NCBI GenBank assembly: GCA_047601445.1 | Contig: JASGJH010000001.1 | Location: 2,624,001 to 2,688,000 of the forward strand | Direction: 5' to 3' | Source: Myxococcales bacterium | Lineage (GTDB): Bacteria > Myxococcota_A > Polyangia > Polyangiales > DASUME01 | DNA length: 64,000 bases | Part shown: positions 15,838-24,267 of the stretch, piece after piece | How positions within the stretch are numbered: the stretch's first letter is position 1 | Layout: every line of letters begins with the position of its first letter | The notes under the pieces: model-generated | The model's input: only the letters and a program-made list of their open reading frames with translations | Databases searched by the model: none | What the model was told of the DNA's origin: nothing | Position numbers and translations under genes: made by a program

Positions 15838-18177
<2,340 letters not shown>

Positions 18178-18229
18178 TCGCGAAGGGATTTTGGTGGCAC
18201 CCGAGATCGCGAGACGGCACCATGCGCCC

Positions 18230-19045
18230 ATGAGCCGCGACGCGATTCCCTACGAGCTCGAAGGCATGGTGTCCACGGTCACCGTGCTGCGCCTGCTGAC
18301 CGACGATCTGGCCTCCGTGCAGAAGGCACTGCGCAACAAAATCGAGCAGATGCCCGGCTTCTTCCAGGACGCCGCGGTCGCCGTGGACCTCTCGGTACTC
18401 GAGGGAACAGACGACGACGCGGAGGAAGATCCGCCGCGCGCGCGCCGCGAGATCCCGCTGCAGAAGATCGTCACCATGCTGCGGGAGCTCAAGCTGGTGC
18501 CGGTGGGCATTCGCTACTTGCGGGAGGCGCGGCGCGCCGAAGCACGTGCCGCGGGCCTGGGCATGCTGCGGGGCTCGAGCCGCAAGCCCACCAGGAGCGT
18601 CCCCAAGGATCCGAACGTCGCCGCCAAGCCGGTCGACGACGCGCGAGCCCAGGACGAGCGCCGCAGCGGCAACGAACGACGGGTCGACGGTCCCATGCCG
18701 GCTCCCATCGTGGTCCCGCCCTCCACGCTCATCCTGCGTACGCCCCTGCGCTCCGGGCAGGTGGTCTACGCCGAACAGTGCGACGCCGTGGTGCTCTCCC
18801 ACGTCAATGCCGGCGCCGAGCTCATCGCCGACGGCAACATTCACGTGTACGCCTCGCTGCGCGGACGAGCCTTGGCTGGAGCGCACGGCAACGAAGAGGC
18901 GCGCATCTTCTGCAAGAGCCTCGAGGCCGACCTGGTGGCCATCGCTGGTTGCTATCTTCGCTCCGACGAAATTCCCGAAAATCGGCGCGGAAAACCCGCG
19001 CAGATCTATCTCGAGAAGGGCCAGCTGGTCATCGCAGATCTGTAA
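18230..19045 (+). CDS. minC: Septum site-determining protein MinC
   Basis: RSGQVVYA, VNAGAELIADGNIHVY..LRGRALAG and ARIFC..LEADLVAIAG. Confidence 0.93.
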   Translation: MSRDAIPYELEGMVSTVTVLRLLTDDLASVQKALRNKIEQMPGFFQDAAVAVDLSVLEGTDDDAEEDPPRARREIPLQKIVTMLRELKLVPVGIRYLREARRAEARAAGLGMLRGSSRKPTRSVPKDPNVAAKPVDDARAQDERRSGNERRVDGPMPAPIVVPPSTLILRTPLRSGQVVYAEQCDAVVLSHVNAGAELIADGNIHVYASLRGRALAGAHGNEEARIFCKSLEADLVAIAGCYLRSDEIPENRRGKPAQIYLEKGQLVIADL

Positions 19046-19070
19046 GCGCAGCCACAGCATTCGGCATGAA

Positions 19071-19095
19071 ATGGGGCCTGCCTGCGAGGCCCCAT
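19071..19095 (+). terminator. Stem-loop after minC (possible terminator or mRNA stabiliser)
   Basis: Perfect 9-bp inverted repeat ATGGGGCCT/AGGCCCCAT with a 7-nt loop and only a weak U tail. Confidence 0.5.
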
Positions 19096-19336
19096 ACGTG
19101 TTTCCAGCTCACGTTTGCCTACATTAGATCACACGCCAACCATCCGAAATCGTTGCCGAAAATTTGTCCTCGCTCGCGTTTTCGCGGTTCATGGGCAAAC
19201 GCGCACGCATCCACACGGATCCGAGCGCCCAAGACAGCAGTTTCAGACGCGACGAGGAGCTCGGGTAATCCGGGCGGGTGATCGAGCAGGGCATGGCGAG
19301 ATCGCGCGTAGCTCCGAGAACGCGGGGAGGTCCGAA

Positions 19337-20164
19337 ATGGCAAAAGTGATCGTCGTGACGTCCGGCAAGGGCGGAGTCGGAAAAACCACCACCAGCGCGA
19401 GCATCGCGGCCGGCATGGCCATGCAGGGGTTCAAGACCGTGGCGATCGACTTCGACGTCGGTCTGCGCAACCTCGACCTGATCATGGGTTGCGAGCGGCG
19501 CGTCGTGTACGACCTGGTCAACGTGGTGAAGGGCGAAGCGACCCTGCGTCAGGCCCTCATCCGCGACAAGCGCATCGAGAATCTGTTCGTGCTCCCGGCC
19601 TCGCAGACGCGCGACAAGGACGCGCTCGACTTCGAAGGCGTCGGCCGCGTGATCGACGAGCTCAAGGACCTCGGCTTCGACTACATCCTTTGCGACTCCC
19701 CGGCGGGCATCGAGAAGGGCGCCCAGATGGCCATGTACTACGCGGACGAGGCCATCGTGGTGACCAACCCCGAGGTGTCCAGCGTGCGCGACAGCGACCG
19801 CGTGCTCGGCCTGCTCGACGCCAAGACCCGCAAGGCGGAGCTCGGCGTGCCCATGAAGACGCACCTGCTCGTGACCCGCTACTCGGCCGAGCGCGCGCTC
19901 AAGGGCGAGATGCTCAAGGTCGACGACATCATCGAGCTGCTCGGCATCCCCTTCCTCGGCGTGATCCCCGAGAGCAAGGCCGTGCTGAACAACTCCAACC
20001 AGGGCACACCCGTGGTGATGGACCAGGAGTGCGACGCGGCCGTGGCTTACGCGGATGCCATCAAGCGCTTCCTCGGTGAGGAACAGCCCCACCGCTTCCT
20101 CACCGCTGAAAAGCGCGGCTTCTTCTCTCGCCTGTTCTCCCCCTCCAACGCCTACGCGGGGTGA
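19337..20164 (+). CDS. minD: Septum site-determining ATPase MinD
   Basis: VTSGKGGVGKTT, DFDVGLRNLDLIMGCERRVVYD, DSPAGIE and C-terminal amphipathic helix KRGFFSRLF. GGAGG SD. Confidence 0.97.
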   Translation: MAKVIVVTSGKGGVGKTTTSASIAAGMAMQGFKTVAIDFDVGLRNLDLIMGCERRVVYDLVNVVKGEATLRQALIRDKRIENLFVLPASQTRDKDALDFEGVGRVIDELKDLGFDYILCDSPAGIEKGAQMAMYYADEAIVVTNPEVSSVRDSDRVLGLLDAKTRKAELGVPMKTHLLVTRYSAERALKGEMLKVDDIIELLGIPFLGVIPESKAVLNNSNQGTPVVMDQECDAAVAYADAIKRFLGEEQPHRFLTAEKRGFFSRLFSPSNAYAG

Positions 20165-20169
20165 GCGCC

Positions 20170-20475
20170 ATGAACAGCTGGCTCAAGTTCTTCAACAAAA
20201 AACCCGAGAATTCGGCCCAAACGGCCAAGGACCGTCTGCAGATCATCGTGGCGCGCGAGCGCACGGCCTGCGGCGGCGCGCCCGGTTACTTGCCCCAGCT
20301 CCAGCAGGAGCTCATGCAGGTCATCGCCAAGTACGAGCGTGTGGATCTCGACCGCGTGCAGGTGAACATCGACCGCAAGGGCGATACCGAGGTTCTCGAG
20401 CTGTGCATCATGCTGCCCGAGGGCCAGGAAGCTCCCGTCCAGGCGCCTCTGCGCGGGCGCCCGCTGTTCGCGTGA
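20170..20475 (+). CDS. minE: Cell division topological specificity factor MinE
   Basis: SAQTAKDRLQIIVARER and YLPQLQQELMQVIAKY. Follows minD. Confidence 0.95.
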   Translation: MNSWLKFFNKKPENSAQTAKDRLQIIVARERTACGGAPGYLPQLQQELMQVIAKYERVDLDRVQVNIDRKGDTEVLELCIMLPEGQEAPVQAPLRGRPLFA

Positions 20476-20587: not shown

Positions 20588-21304
20588 TTACTGATTGACC
20601 TTGCGAGCGTTCTTCGGCGGCTGCCACTCGAAGGTCTTGGCGTCGAGCTTGCGGTTGAACTTGGGCGACTTGAAGTCGATGCGGTTGCGGTTGCCGCTGG
20701 CGTCCAGGATCAGCACGCGATGCACGAGGCCCGCGCGGTCGGCCTGACCGTCCACGTAGAACAAGATGCGCTCGTAGTGAGGACTCTTCACCTTGGGCAT
20801 CAGCTCGAGCACGTAGCCCCCGGGGAAACCCTGCTGAGCCGAGTCGAGCAGACGGAACGTGAAGTCGTTCTCGAGCTTGCCTGTGCCGGTGAGGAAGGCG
20901 AGCGCTTGAGGTAGCTCCGATTCGCTGATCGGTCGCTCGAAGACCTGACCAGGCTCCTTGTCTTCCCCGGGCTCGTAGACGATCAAGCGCGACCCGTTGC
21001 TGACGATGACCTTGCCGTTCGGCGCCGCGTAGTTCCAGCGCATCCTGCCGGGCTTCTGGAAGGCCACGGTGCCCGAGGACTTGTCGTATTTGTCGTAGAG
21101 CCGGTGGAAGTAGGTCTGGTAGAAGCCCGCTTCGACCGACGTGGTCTGGTCGTAGAAGGCCTGGACCTGCGCAGCGACTTGTTGAGGTGTCACGCCTGCA
21201 ACGGAACTTTCCGCCGCGGCCAAACCTGAGACGAGGCTGACGACAACACACGCCAAGATCGAAAGAAAACGTACAGAACGGAACTTGGTCTCGGCAGGAT
21301 TCAC
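20588..21304 (-). CDS. lolA: Outer-membrane lipoprotein carrier LolA
   Basis: Signal peptide, A.FYQ, G...FQKPGRMRWNY..P.K.IVSNG..L.VY, F.W.PP. Start uncertain. Confidence 0.88.
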   Translation of the reverse strand: MNPAETKFRSVRFLSILACVVVSLVSGLAAAESSVAGVTPQQVAAQVQAFYDQTTSVEAGFYQTYFHRLYDKYDKSSGTVAFQKPGRMRWNYAAPNGKVIVSNGSRLIVYEPGEDKEPGQVFERPISESELPQALAFLTGTGKLENDFTFRLLDSAQQGFPGGYVLELMPKVKSPHYERILFYVDGQADRAGLVHRVLILDASGNRNRIDFKSPKFNRKLDAKTFEWQPPKNARKVNQ

Positions 21305-21617
21305 GATTTTTCCCCGCGCTCGTTGTGAAGGGCCGTACTCGTTGGTTGTGGCCCCTGCTACGAGACAGGTCAATCGGCCCCCCGATTCAAAGCGAAATCG
21401 CCGAGAAACTCGCTGTTTCCGCGCGCCAACGCGTCCAATACTCCAGAACCACGGGCGAATTTCCAAAGCCTTGATCTGCGCGCAAACGCTTGCCTAGGAT
21501 GGCCGACGTGGCGATTTGAGCACGGTGCGAGAACGCCTTTGTGACGAGGGAGACAGGCCCAAAGCCGGGGAACGCGAGACGTGACGCGCCTCGAGCTGTT
21601 AGCTGGGAGGGATCGAC

Positions 21618-21815
21618 ATGGCCAAACAAACGTTCGATTCGCGGATGACGCTCGCAAACCTCGAAGAGCAGCATCGAACGCTGAAACGACAGGTGGCTTA
21701 CCTGGAACGTCGTGCCTTTCTAACTCCCACCGAACAGCGCGAAGCCACGGACCTCAAGAAGAAGAAGCTCGCGACCAAAGATGCCATCGCCGCACTGCGC
21801 GCCGGCATGAACTAG
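21618..21815 (+). CDS. DUF465/YdcH-like small coiled-coil protein
   Basis: LEEQHRTL..QV...LKKKKLATKDAI pattern, with GGGAGG SD. Confidence 0.8.
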   Translation: MAKQTFDSRMTLANLEEQHRTLKRQVAYLERRAFLTPTEQREATDLKKKKLATKDAIAALRAGMN

Positions 21816-21866
21816 TAGCGACGTAATCTCTCGAGCGGTCGTCGACGTCGGACGCCGCACCTTCCG

Positions 21867-21901
21867 GAACCCCGCCCGCCCATGAGCGCGCGGGGTTTCT
21901 C
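21867..21901. terminator. Hairpin between convergent genes (probable terminator)
   Basis: AACCCCGC...GCGGGGTT stem followed by TCTCC. Confidence 0.5.
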
Positions 21902-21939
21902 CGCTTCTATGCCGGGCGTTCACGAGCCGCAGGAACGTC

Positions 21940-22314
21940 TCACGAGCCTGAAGAGGCCGGAGCTTCCTCGCCGCCGGCAGCGCCCAGGTCGCGCAGGGTG
22001 ACGGCCAGGTTGGTGCGCCAGTCGGGCGTCAGACCCACGCCAGCATCGCCGGCTTCCTCGCGACAGAGGGCCAGGTAGTGCTTGGCGCGCGCACGCTCGC
22101 CGGTGCGGAAAGCCGTCATGCCGGAGAGGTAATAGAAGCGCGACCGCAGCTCGCGATCCATCTCGGGAACGTTCGGCTCGAGGTCGGTCAACCACGTCTG
22201 TGCGTTCTCGTAGCGGGCCTCGCTGAAGGCCTGCTCGGCGTGCCTCAAGTCATCGCGCAAGGCCGCGCAGCCGAAGAACAAGACACCAACCAGGCCCAAC
22301 CAAACGATGCGCAT
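21940..22314 (-). CDS. Small TPR-like lipoprotein
   Basis: MRIVWLGLVGVLFFGC lipobox and helical pair FYYLSGMTAFRTGE..RAKHYL. Confidence 0.75.
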   Translation of the reverse strand: MRIVWLGLVGVLFFGCAALRDDLRHAEQAFSEARYENAQTWLTDLEPNVPEMDRELRSRFYYLSGMTAFRTGERARAKHYLALCREEAGDAGVGLTPDWRTNLAVTLRDLGAAGGEEAPASSGS

Positions 22315-22395
22315 CGTGCGGCGCACAATACCTGCACCGAGGTTACGGCGACAAGCGAGCGACTCACTCACGGACAAGGCCGCGCCCATGCAGGC

Positions 22396-22434
22396 AAAAA
22401 AAAGCGCTCGCGGGGACCGCCACCCAGCGAGCGC
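22396..22434 (-). terminator. Rho-independent terminator
   Basis: GCGCTCGC...GCGAGCGC 8-bp stem (extendable by GGG/CCC) followed directly by T8 on the minus strand. Confidence 0.85.
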
Positions 22435-22532
22435 CAAGCTTTGTATGGAAGCGCGAAGCGATCTGAAAAGCGAAGGGAGGAAAGGATAAGCAAGCCAAGG
22501 TGGGCCTTGGGGCCCTCACACCAACCAACCGA
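22396..22532 (-). ncRNA. Candidate sigma54-dependent small regulatory RNA (~135 nt)
   Basis: Bounded by a -24/-12 promoter and an intrinsic terminator, with a 5' hairpin CCAAGG-CCCA-CCTTGG and a CU-rich tract. No complete ORF inside. Confidence 0.65.
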
Positions 22533-22542
22533 GGTGATACCT

Positions 22543-22559
22543 AGCAACGCTGATGCCAA
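22543..22559 (-). promoter_or_regulatory. Sigma54 (-24/-12) promoter
   Basis: Minus strand reads TTGGCATCAGCGTTGCT, versus consensus YTGGCACG-N4-TTGCW, with exact GG-N10-GC spacing. Confidence 0.8.
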
Positions 22560-22828
22560 GCCTTCTGGCGCGCGTGGGTGATGCACTAAATCGCATGTGA
22601 TCGCAGGTGGTTACACGAGTTTCACAGCGGTTTCATATTGTGTTTCAACGCACCAAAGCCGGCATCGGTTATGACATCTATGTCTGTCCCTAGAATAGGG
22701 TTCAGGCGACCGGCCAACATTCGAAACAGGTGGCCTACAAATTTTTGGTCGCCTTGCGACTTGCGGCACCCGATTGGGCCGATCTAGGCCCAGTCCCGGT
22801 TAGACCGGTGTGTCGGAGCTGTCACACC

Positions 22829-24166
22829 TCAGCCTGCGACGTCGAGCTCGATATCGATGGCGAAGTCGTCGTCGCTGGCAGAGGTCCCCGTGTTGTCGAG
22901 CCACATGCGCGTATCGAGAGCGCGCTCGTCGCCGAGCGAACCGAGATACGAAGCAAGCTCGGGCACGCTCTCCATGAGCCGCTCGACGTATTCGCGTGCG
23001 AGGAACAAGACGGTCGAGCGCTGCGCCGCGGTGACGGTGGCGGTGGCGGGGGCGCCGTTCAAGAGCGCCATTTCGCCGAACACGTCGCTCGAGCCGAGGG
23101 TCGCTAGCAGGACCTTCTCGTCGCCGGCTCGCTTCCAGACATCCACGCTGCCTTGCAGGATCACGTAGAGCCCCCTACCCGGCTCGCCCTCGCGGATCAG
23201 GTCGGTCTGTGCCGCGACCTCGTGGGCCACGAAACGTCGCACGAGATCGATGCGCTGCTCGCGACTCAGCGGGCGGAACAACCGCGACGTGTTGATCAGG
23301 TTGGTCACCAGGCGCTCGCGCGTGAACTTGGCGAGCGCGCGCGCGATGGCAGCCGCTCCGTCGGACAGCTGCCCGAGCGCCGCGACGTGCAGCTCCAGTA
23401 GGTCCGCGTCGCTCGTGGCCACCACGTGCGCGCTGCGGGGCGTGCGTGAAAGCAAGGCCATTTCCCCGAACAGAGCACCTTCGTGCAGCGAGGTGAGGTG
23501 GGTCTGTGAGCCGTCCTGTTCGTCGCGGGAGATATCGAAGTCGCCGCGCGCCGCCAGGAAGAAGCTCTGACCTTCTTCGCCCTGCGTGATCACGCGTTCG
23601 CCAGCGCCCTTGCGCACGAGCGTCATGGTCGCGAACACGGCGGTGAAGTCGTCGTTGCTGAGCTCGCTCAAGAGAGGAATGGGCGGCAGCGCGCCAGCGA
23701 ACCTGAGTGGCGGCGTCTCCTTGCCCAGCTGCTCCGCAGCTTGGAACAGCGCATCCCCCGTGAGCTGCAGGAACGCGAGGTCGCGGGCAGTCACGGACAG
23801 CTGCTCGTCGGCAGGCACAGGACGGGCGCCGCGGCCGATGCGCCCTTCGGCGCAGTAGAGCTCCGCCACGGCCGACACGAGCGGCGCCAGGCGCGGGTCG
23901 AGTGCGCTCAAGATCTTGATCGCGACCAGGGCACGCAGCGGGTGTCCCTCATTGGCAGCCTGGCGCGCGAAGGTCGTGTACACGACGGCCGCGGATTGGA
24001 CTTGTCCGAGCGCGAGCAAGCAGTCGGCCACGCGCAGGCGCGCGTCGAGGTGCGCAGGCTGCGCGGCCAGCGCGCAGAGATAGCCTGCGAGGGCCTGCGG
24101 GAACTGCCGTTGCGCGAACGCCTGGTCGGCGGCCGAACGAGCTTCGAACACGGTAGTGGGGATCAC
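22829..24166 (-). CDS. TPR plus tandem cyclic-nucleotide-binding domain protein
   Basis: N-terminal TPR-like helices, then two CNB domains (FGEMALLSRTPRSA and FGEMALLNGAPATA). Confidence 0.85.
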   Translation of the reverse strand: MIPTTVFEARSAADQAFAQRQFPQALAGYLCALAAQPAHLDARLRVADCLLALGQVQSAAVVYTTFARQAANEGHPLRALVAIKILSALDPRLAPLVSAVAELYCAEGRIGRGARPVPADEQLSVTARDLAFLQLTGDALFQAAEQLGKETPPLRFAGALPPIPLLSELSNDDFTAVFATMTLVRKGAGERVITQGEEGQSFFLAARGDFDISRDEQDGSQTHLTSLHEGALFGEMALLSRTPRSAHVVATSDADLLELHVAALGQLSDGAAAIARALAKFTRERLVTNLINTSRLFRPLSREQRIDLVRRFVAHEVAAQTDLIREGEPGRGLYVILQGSVDVWKRAGDEKVLLATLGSSDVFGEMALLNGAPATATVTAAQRSTVLFLAREYVERLMESVPELASYLGSLGDERALDTRMWLDNTGTSASDDDFAIDIELDVAG

Positions 24167-24267
24167 GCAGGCACTGTACCAGCGATGGTCTGGACCTCGG
24201 GGACCAAAAAAAAGCCGCCATCTGCCCTGGCGATTCCGTAATCGAGTACACTTGGTTCTCACGCCAG

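Follow-up and report, generated by a model that had tools for sequence, protein, structure and literature searches.

Organization of the locus

The window, by which the whole stretch of 64,000 nucleotides analyzed is meant, belongs to a 9.5-Mb genome of 66% GC that is assembled as a single contig and is 98.7% complete. At the locus under study, read along the minus strand, a gene encoding a cyclic-nucleotide-binding protein is followed by a predicted RNA unit, a gene encoding a 124-aa lipoprotein and lolA. The features of the locus are:

22829–24175, minus strand: upstream gene encoding two cyclic-nucleotide-binding domains (PF00027 twice)
22808–22827, no strand assigned: possible second, weaker site (GTGTGACAG...GACACAC), ca. 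266 bp above the promoter, of putative function
22673–22684, no strand assigned: palindromic site GACATAGATGTC (GACA-N4-TGTC), predicted sigma54-activator enhancer, 127 bp above the -24 GG
22543–22559, minus strand: sigma54 -24/-12 box TTGGCATCAGCGTTGCT, identified by sequence, with correct GG-N10-GC spacing and +1 predicted near 22532
22396–22532, minus strand: predicted non-coding RNA of ca. 137 nt, with boundaries deduced from promoter and terminator
22502–22515, minus strand: 5' hairpin GGGCC-CCAA-GGCCC, a predicted fold with predicted equivalents in congeners G007 and G004
22436–22499, minus strand: CUU-repeat core with nine CUU triplets, identified by sequence and family-wide enrichment
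22396–22434, minus strand: intrinsic terminator with an 8-bp GC stem, three more pairs and U8, identified by fold z and compensatory changes
22325–22354, minus strand: sigma70-type promoter TTGTCG-N18-TATTGT of the lipoprotein gene, ending 10 nt above its ATG
21940–22314, minus strand: conserved 124-aa lipoprotein, TPR-like helical, without a Pfam family, the commonest neighbor of the RNA
20588–21346, minus strand: lolA, lipoprotein carrier (PF03548)

The first-pass annotation had proposed a sigma54-driven small RNA with five features, all of which were found on the minus strand where it had placed them: the promoter box, a hairpin CCAAGG/CCTTGG at 22510–22495, a pyrimidine tract at 22489–22471, CGCTT repeats at 22472, 22460 and 22453, and an 8-bp GC stem plus T8 at 22434–22396. 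The palindrome, which is the strongest element at the locus, was absent from its list. Both the pyrimidine tract and the CGCUU repeats are taken in by the CUU-repeat core, whose triplets lie at 22499, 22494, 22490, 22484, 22475, 22470, 22458, 22451 and 22438 and include three tandem CUU-N(1-2)-CUU arrangements. Promoter-to-U-tract units of similar size are found in six congeners.

As judged from sequence, palindrome, sigma54 box, CUU-rich stretch and terminator make up a conserved and apparently undescribed family of sigma54 RNA genes. The RNA of the window is single-copy, no paralogue being found in its own genome by blastn or nhmmer. Searches of Rfam 15 with the window locus, 20 homologous loci and 18 further loci (seven of them from the CUU-repeat RNA family) returned nothing near any cut-off; an Rfam match had been named as what would count against novelty. 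A literature search whose reach left out most subscription journals found no published description of the CUU-repeat RNA.

A sigma54-type promoter and its upstream palindrome

The -24/-12 box had been described as near-perfect. Its place and spacing are correct, but the box alone is not above chance in the genome: TGGCA-N6-TTGCW occurs 31 times, as compared with 17–35 times for four wrong spacings, and a relaxed box-plus-terminator scan gave 7 hits among 666 boxes at the right spacing versus 1–8 at wrong ones. Among 21 YTGGCA-N6-TTGCW boxes, that of this locus alone has a T6 run no farther than 330 nt away. Since wrong spacings are equally common, a sigma54 box is not evidence by itself, and it is conservation that settles the point: the box is kept, with correct spacing, at the syntenic position in six congeners and across the order, Polyangiales. 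Conservation of promoter and terminator in relatives had been set as a test of the proposed unit, and both are kept among congeners.

The palindrome was present as GACRNNNATGTC in all nine loci first compared, 126–138 bp above the -24 GG, and it extends past the letters searched for, with the family consensus CCATGACA-N4-TGTCATGG, i.e. (CCAT)GACA-N4-TGTC(ATGG). Palindrome and box were found together in 62 of the 401 genomes of the order, nearly always once each (reversed control, 1), in 97 of the 401 when shorter gaps were searched (control, 6), and in 76 of 231 genomes across the phylum (control, 6). The counts of 62 and 97, like that of 281 given below for the lipoprotein gene, include the unpublished genomes G122 and G387, on which nothing else stated here depends. 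In 79 RNA loci, the distance from palindrome to box ranged from 77 to 157 bp, with values near 79, 90, 101, 112, 123, 134, 145 and 157; 16 of these 79 distances were read by hand. At a period of 11 bp the Rayleigh R was 0.63 for the 79 loci and 0.55 on distinct values, as compared with 0.03–0.18 at 7–9 and 13–15 bp and 0.29 for 18 hits set aside as non-RNA; these R values, like the z values given below, overstate significance because related genomes are not independent. A phasing of about 11 bp is what a looping sigma54 enhancer would give, and we infer that an enhancer-binding protein on the palindrome would loop to the sigma54 polymerase. The earlier proposal of a sigma54-type non-coding unit gains support, at the level of sequence, from the conservation of the box among congeners and across the order together with the phased palindrome upstream.

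The possible second site has a counterpart at -264 in G007 and at -269 in G004; it was not seen at that position in the other loci compared. The AT-rich stretch separating palindrome from promoter carries, at 22610–22647 on the minus strand, three TGAAAC hexamers and one TGTAAC spaced 12, 11 and 9 bp, an array that could be a bending site or a site for a second regulator.

The host genome encodes 49 candidate sigma54 activators, none of which could be assigned to the palindrome, and no activator gene was found beside the RNA among 29 upstream frames scanned in homologues. One sigma54 activator gene lies in the window at about 40056 on the plus strand (G000:C1:2664056), ca. 17.5 kb from the RNA. 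Outside the window, a second palindrome of the genome (G000:C1:1371819, minus strand; L396) stands 133 bp above a TTGGTT...TTGC box and is followed by a 79-aa hydrophobic ORF and then by a sigma54 activator with an FHA domain; G007 and G009 have kept both the site and the small ORF, which were not seen in three other families. As the cognate protein of the palindrome, this FHA-domain activator is doubtful, a matching site with promoter being missing above its orthologues in G051, G123 and G071, and NmpR was rejected because its site is described as GCGCA-N5-TGCGC (PMC11841059).

Other units under the same palindrome

Outside the order, in families f38, f49, f54 and f55, the same palindrome and box precede a different unit of ca. 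75–90 nt, which was read by eye at loci L361, L363, L364, L365, L368, L369, L374, L375, L377, L379 and L381. It combines a GGAGA-like start with a hairpin, a CCUCACCGCA-like motif and a terminator of the form GCCCGG/CCGGGC. The genes below it are diacylglycerol-kinase-like or FAD-oxidase genes and not lolA, and Rfam gave no match; the unit probably represents another family of small RNAs that is as yet undescribed. Other recurring targets of the palindrome are a family of lipoproteins of 170–200 aa without a Pfam match and small PilZ-domain or PilZ-like proteins (loci L257, L285, L286, L288–L293, L295–L298 and L255, L273–L275, L277, L279, L284). At L342, L344, L346, L347 and L352, in families f32 and f48, palindrome-driven leaders with C-run motifs were seen, some ending in a hairpin plus U tract, which are possibly more small RNAs or leaders. 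Palindrome plus box is predicted to be a sigma54 enhancer conserved phylum-wide. Among its targets are lipoproteins and PilZ-domain proteins as well as another small RNA, unrelated to the one in the window.

Distribution of the CUU-repeat RNA

A total of 190 distinct palindrome-plus-box hits were read, comprising all hits of the 62-genome search, 50 of the shorter-gap hits, 60 of the 118 hits out of the order and those met in 40 regions above lipoprotein genes. Loci with at least 8 CUU and at least one tandem within 200 nt were classed as RNA loci. This rule was passed in at least 75 of the 401 genomes of the order, spread over 17 of its 24 families, and by none of the 60 out-of-order loci; 75 is a lower bound, six genomes scored positive by eye failing the rule (including a truncated locus and the sole positive from family f20). 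The usual neighbor of an RNA locus is this lipoprotein gene or lolA. In f17, which with 191 genomes is the largest family, one RNA locus was found, in G255, and none above the eight lipoprotein genes read.

Within the genus, represented by nine genomes, box, CU-rich body and terminator lie below the same upstream gene in G002, G004, G007, G008 and G009, and at the start of a contig in G003; the contig of G005 ends inside the box and the match in G006 is truncated. The locus of G001 has no RNA, its two flanking genes being joined with ca. 65 bp between them. Among congeners, box and terminator are conserved, but the RNA body is not, and even the pyrimidine tract differs. Of the two comparisons that had been suggested, DNA similarity failed, recovering only 3 of 40 relatives, and synteny succeeded, the unit being found across the order; it is because of the former that synteny and promoter pattern were needed. 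RNA length ranges from ca. 90 to more than 500 nt across the family and the number of CUU grows with it (r 0.69), both subject to noisy 3' ends: one terminator caller halts at internal hairpins and the other accepts 54 of 54, so that family lengths are approximate.

Neighboring genes and independence of the unit

The lipoprotein gene is present in 281 of the 401 genomes of the order, and its look-alikes in the Atlas are Myxococcota lipoprotein clusters. Among 73 syntenic hits, it lies downstream of the RNA in 53 and divergently upstream in 12, the rest lying by lolA, which is downstream in 6. Where the lipoprotein gene is missing, lolA is directly beside the RNA in G028, G015, G071 and G042, and in G066 as judged by translation and tblastn. 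The cyclic-nucleotide-binding neighbor is a feature of the genus that is found only in part outside it; in other families the upstream position is taken by a subtilase gene (10 of the 29 frames scanned) or by other genes. Three plus-strand ORFs of the window, at 18158–20475, converge on lolA, and from their translations we take them to resemble a minC-minD-minE set.

The unit had been considered free-standing on account of a -10-like TATTGT above the next gene. This element was confirmed at 22330–22325, as part of a sigma70-type promoter that a strict consensus promoter scanner did not list. Because this promoter ends 10 nt above the ATG, the lipoprotein mRNA is predicted to be leaderless. Of 54 lipoprotein genes lying downstream of the RNA, 43 have a TAnnnT element that ends 6–10 nt before the start codon, and G001, which lacks the RNA at this locus, retains the promoter of the gene. 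Elsewhere the RNA is divergent from the gene or present without it, G002 and G003 keeping the RNA with an unrelated gene downstream, and the free-standing nature of the unit is upheld by these arrangements.

A repeated CUU motif in the RNA body

An initial 80 loci had been chosen by eye; since that choice is partly circular, the signal was retested on 73 hits selected by synteny only, each no farther than 1.1 kb from the lipoprotein gene or lolA. In the first 140 nt of these 73 loci, CUU had a median of 10 copies (743 in total versus 469 in shuffles), GCUU occurred 331 times (145 in shuffles), and tandem CUU-N(1-2)-CUU was present in 69 loci, with 234 occurrences versus 43 ± 6.5 in dinucleotide shuffles. 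The 116 other palindrome-plus-box hits showed a median of 2 CUU and tandems in 18, six of these 18 being RNA loci without a reachable neighbor. Spacings of 4 and 5 nt between CUU triplets were enriched (63 vs 41 and 84 vs 38) and that of 3 nt depleted (18 vs 45), and distances between GCUU pairs were even modulo 3 (240/265/281), so that the repeat comes neither from a reading frame nor from a Lys-rich gene on the other strand. UUU was depleted in the 73 loci (243 vs 436) and GGA slightly so in 79 RNAs (93 vs 117 expected). The unpaired fraction of CUU was 0.68, as compared with 0.67 in shuffles, i.e. the triplets are no more exposed.

An anti-Shine-Dalgarno seed had been proposed as the functional element of the RNA, which these data do not support. 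CCUCC and CUCCU were depleted in the 73 synteny homologues (14 vs 26 and 14 vs 37 expected, respectively), the tract is not conserved as a block, no block longer than ca. 8 nt and no 5' block is common to the RNA bodies of all seven congeners, and neither Hfq nor ProQ nor a standout target was found. UUCCUU, which can pair with GAGGAG through G-U, was enriched (61 vs 14, in 34 of the 73). Target prediction for the window RNA gave no signal either: in a duplex scan of 7208 roughly called translation-start regions, with accessibility ignored, the best duplex reached -44.0 kcal/mol versus -39.4 to -44.1 for 4 shuffled RNAs. Exact complements of the pyrimidine tract were found over 11 nt in 1 and over 10 nt in 4 of the 7208 regions. 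The conserved signal is the many-copy CUU-N(1-2)-CUU repeat, and the proposal of a seed is probably wrong.

Folding and terminator

Covariation, which had been suggested as a check, was seen in the terminator, whose pairing is kept in seven congeners, 2 of its 11 pairs showing compensatory changes. The terminator, which a simple terminator scanner did not flag, also folds better than shuffles (z -2.79, 1 of 200 shuffles). For the whole 137-nt RNA, folding was not above the level of shuffles (z -0.89), nor was it for the 5' folds. The sequence of the originally proposed CCAAGG/CCTTGG hairpin is in place, but this hairpin cannot form in G007 or G004 and the one shared with these relatives is GGGCC/GGCCC, at 22515–22502. 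In a subfamily, 23 of 80 members by a loose pattern, a freely varying stem presents a near-invariant GCCCGGCA apex (UGCUUGCCCGGCAUG-like); among these members are L146–L148, L159–L162, L164, L169–L171, L176, L179, L180, L194, L225 and L282. This apex hairpin is absent from the RNA of the window. Complements of the apex numbered 5–20 sites per genome versus 5–14 for the control, and no shared start codon was found in the 30 of 57 sites read.

A proposed decoy for a CUU-reading protein

A short motif in many copies, 4–5-nt spacing, free length, no shared seed and an activator-dependent promoter are together the layout of a decoy. Judging from these sequence traits, we put at about even the chances that the RNA, predicted to be activator-induced, acts as a decoy for several copies of a CUU-reading protein, in the manner of CrcZ or CsrB but with a new motif. 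Transcription of the RNA would be triggered by the activator on the palindrome looping to the sigma54 polymerase, and a discrete RNA would be made from the promoter to the U tract. Its CUU triplets, 4–5 nt apart, would be protein-binding sites whose number sets the capacity of the RNA, and by titrating the CUU-reading protein the decoy would release the mRNA targets of that protein.

Hfq (PF17209) and CsrA (PF02599) had no match in the host genome G000, with matches in 5 and 3 of 14 control genomes, respectively; ProQ had none either, its family being matched in control genomes. Four RRM proteins and two cold-shock proteins are encoded by the host, and one of these six could, speculatively, be the partner. 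In E. coli, CspE and CspC are reported to bind RNAs that are rich in U and imitate the mRNAs of membrane proteins (PMC4520561). No RNA-binding protein was seen to be lost together with the RNA in G001, which has 6 RRM matches like its congeners and 1 cold-shock match versus 3–5 in these, in assemblies that are fragmented. No cluster of sense-strand CUU repeats marked a clear set of 5' leaders, and the leaders of RRM and cold-shock genes had no CUU cluster (3–8 CUU per 430 nt). Counted against a decoy are the enrichment of UUCCUU, which could pair with Shine-Dalgarno sequences, and the apex of 23 of the 80 members, which looks like a seed. That the circuit serves the cell envelope is speculative.

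Alternative explanations

The RNA might instead be a trans-acting base-pairing repressor, as first proposed, in which CU-rich segments would form duplexes, some of the pairs being G-U, with the purine-rich ribosome-binding regions of many mRNAs, possibly with help from an RRM protein such as RbpB gives to FopS. Such a repressor is possible, though we hold it to be unlikely. It keeps its weight through the enrichment of UUCCUU, the near-invariant GCCCGGCA apex on variable stems and the precedent of FopS RNAs, which are described as pairing with targets in Hfq-less Bacteroides (PMC11697453); the few long complements of the tract and the presence of RRM proteins in the host also speak for it. Against pairing stand the depletion of CCUCC and CUCCU, a tract that differs even among congeners, a best duplex within the range of four shuffles, and complements of the apex that are near background and share no start codon. 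A cis-acting leader, attenuator or interfering transcript of the lipoprotein/lolA locus would account for the strong linkage to these genes (53 and 6 of 73 with the lipoprotein gene or lolA downstream) and for the weak U tracts of some terminators. It is nevertheless improbable, because the lipoprotein gene is divergent in 12 of the 73, G002 and G003 keep the RNA above an unrelated gene, G001 keeps gene and promoter without the RNA, and 43 of 54 genes have their own leaderless promoter.

Coding capacity was considered as well. A 51-codon GTG frame lies at 22364–22519 on the minus strand of the window, and its first part is in register in G007 and G004: the three genomes share a frame from GTG, GTG and ATG (22519 in the window) through Leu-Ala-Cys-Leu, in which a 3-nt indel and a change between the serine codons TCC and AGC are seen, so that a small peptide is possible in G000, G007 and G004 only. 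That the RNA is at large an mRNA for a small hydrophobic peptide, or a dual-function RNA, is quite improbable, as the three products would have 51, 40 and 26 aa and their 3' frames diverge, no Shine-Dalgarno sequence is present and the frame of the window runs through the terminator. The frame is not shared by the wider family, in which 33 of 80 members lack ATG or GTG in the first 80 nt and stops are spread over all frames (107/93/86). The remaining alternative, that the signal is cast by a Lys/Ala-rich reading frame on the opposite strand or that the stretch is a pyrimidine-rich spacer without function, draws on the densest CUU windows elsewhere in the genome, which look antisense to Lys/Ala-rich genes, and on the failure of the whole RNA to fold better than shuffles. 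We regard it as very improbable indeed: codon shadows give 3- and 6-nt spacing, whereas 3 nt is depleted here, L111 and L116 share no opposite-strand frame, promoter, palindrome and terminator are all oriented along the CU-rich strand, and the repeat persists in 17 families.

Comparison with known regulatory systems

Pxr, in the literature consulted the characterized myxobacterial regulatory RNA, is reported from one suborder, its direct targets being still unknown in 2025 according to PMC11928866. It is described as intergenic and as having an enhancer region and an intrinsic terminator besides a predicted sigma54 promoter (PMC5568312, PMC5684412); it lies below the sigma54 activator gene pxrR/nla19, is known from Cystobacterineae and has a purine-rich 5' end (PMC5568312, Table S1). 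The CUU-repeat RNA is likewise myxobacterial and intergenic, with a sigma54-type promoter, an enhancer-like site and a terminator, all predicted from sequence. By contrast to Pxr, it is pyrimidine-rich, is found in another order beside a lipoprotein gene or lolA, and has a cyclic-nucleotide-binding gene upstream in place of pxrR/nla19. That the two are not homologous, as the first-pass annotation had also judged, agrees with the Pxr model RF01812, which had no match in 21500–23500 at E up to 10 and whose best score in the genome, 16.6 bits, was elsewhere and far from the cut-off of 80; in scans of other genomes it matched 0 of 141 and 0 of 61, no positive control matching in these scans.

The RNAs CsrB, RsmY and RsmZ are of variable length and poor linear conservation, and carry a repeated short motif that mimics mRNA sites. 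The CUU-repeat RNA resembles CsrB and RsmZ in its many copies of one short motif, whose number varies with length, and differs from them in that GGA is slightly depleted and no CsrA was found. CsrB-type decoys have been likened to CrcZ, which is made from an RpoN promoter under CbrB and titrates Hfq via repeated A-rich motifs (PMC4063720). Similar to CrcZ are the predicted sigma54 promoter with an upstream activator site, the free-standing position and the many copies of a short motif; unlike in CrcZ, the motif is CUU-N(1-2)-CUU and not A-rich, no Hfq was found and no activator gene lies beside the RNA. The CUU-repeat RNA most likely works like CrcZ or CsrB, as a member of neither family.

CopR and CusR are OmpR-type regulators that act at sigma70 promoters. 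Their box, TGACA-N4-TGTCA (PMC12428095), has the same core palindrome as the upstream site described here, which differs in standing 77–157 bp above a sigma54 box in helical phase. GlmY, a sigma54 RNA with upstream GlrR sites TGTC-N10-GACA (PMC3045617) and a decoy of RapZ (PMC7073468), is similar in type of promoter and in having upstream sites built from GACA/TGTC half-sites; in the palindrome GACA-N4-TGTC, however, half-site order is opposite and spacing is other, and no Rfam match was obtained. With FopS and GibS of Bacteroides and their RbpB, the system shares a host lacking matches to Hfq, CsrA and ProQ and provided with RRM proteins. The FopS RNAs are 14 paralogues whose 5' seed is conserved and which act by pairing with mRNA (PMC11697453), unlike the CUU-repeat RNA, which is single-copy and without a shared seed. 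Further literature served for comparison and for assessing novelty (PMC10217877, PMC13370968, PMC8538405, PMC3128592).

Possible targets and significance

The commonest repeat, CUUGGCUUGC, reads Leu-Ala-Cys, a lipobox. In the host genome, the density of the tandem motif was 1.34 per kb in 553 predicted lipoprotein signal regions, as compared with 0.96 in other N-terminal hydrophobic regions, 0.29 in internal membrane segments, 0.22 in other N-termini and 0.13 in internal regions; in the lipoprotein signal regions, 29 motifs were observed versus 18 ± 4 expected from their own codon usage. Lipobox enrichment among other palindrome targets was modest (19 of 116 vs 54 of 600). These figures give a weak hint, to be taken as a lead and not as a result, that lipoprotein signal peptides are the target class of the RNA, a link also suggested by the fact that its gene stays beside the lipoprotein gene and lolA. 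In its widest form, the proposal would have the RNA serve as decoy arm of a post-transcriptional system, as yet undescribed, of bacteria that lack Hfq, CsrA and ProQ; under a phylum-conserved sigma54 enhancer, it would mimic CUU-rich lipoprotein signal-peptide codons and titrate a protein that holds or routes those mRNAs. Taken as a whole, this scheme is doubtful.

The CUU-repeat RNA is found in most families of another order than that of Pxr, in a layout that is missed by sequence-similarity and Rfam searches. If it is a decoy, it would point to the existence, where Hfq, CsrA and ProQ are lacking, of a bacterial regulator that binds RNA in a sequence-specific way, and the RNA would itself supply the bait and the motif for catching its protein.
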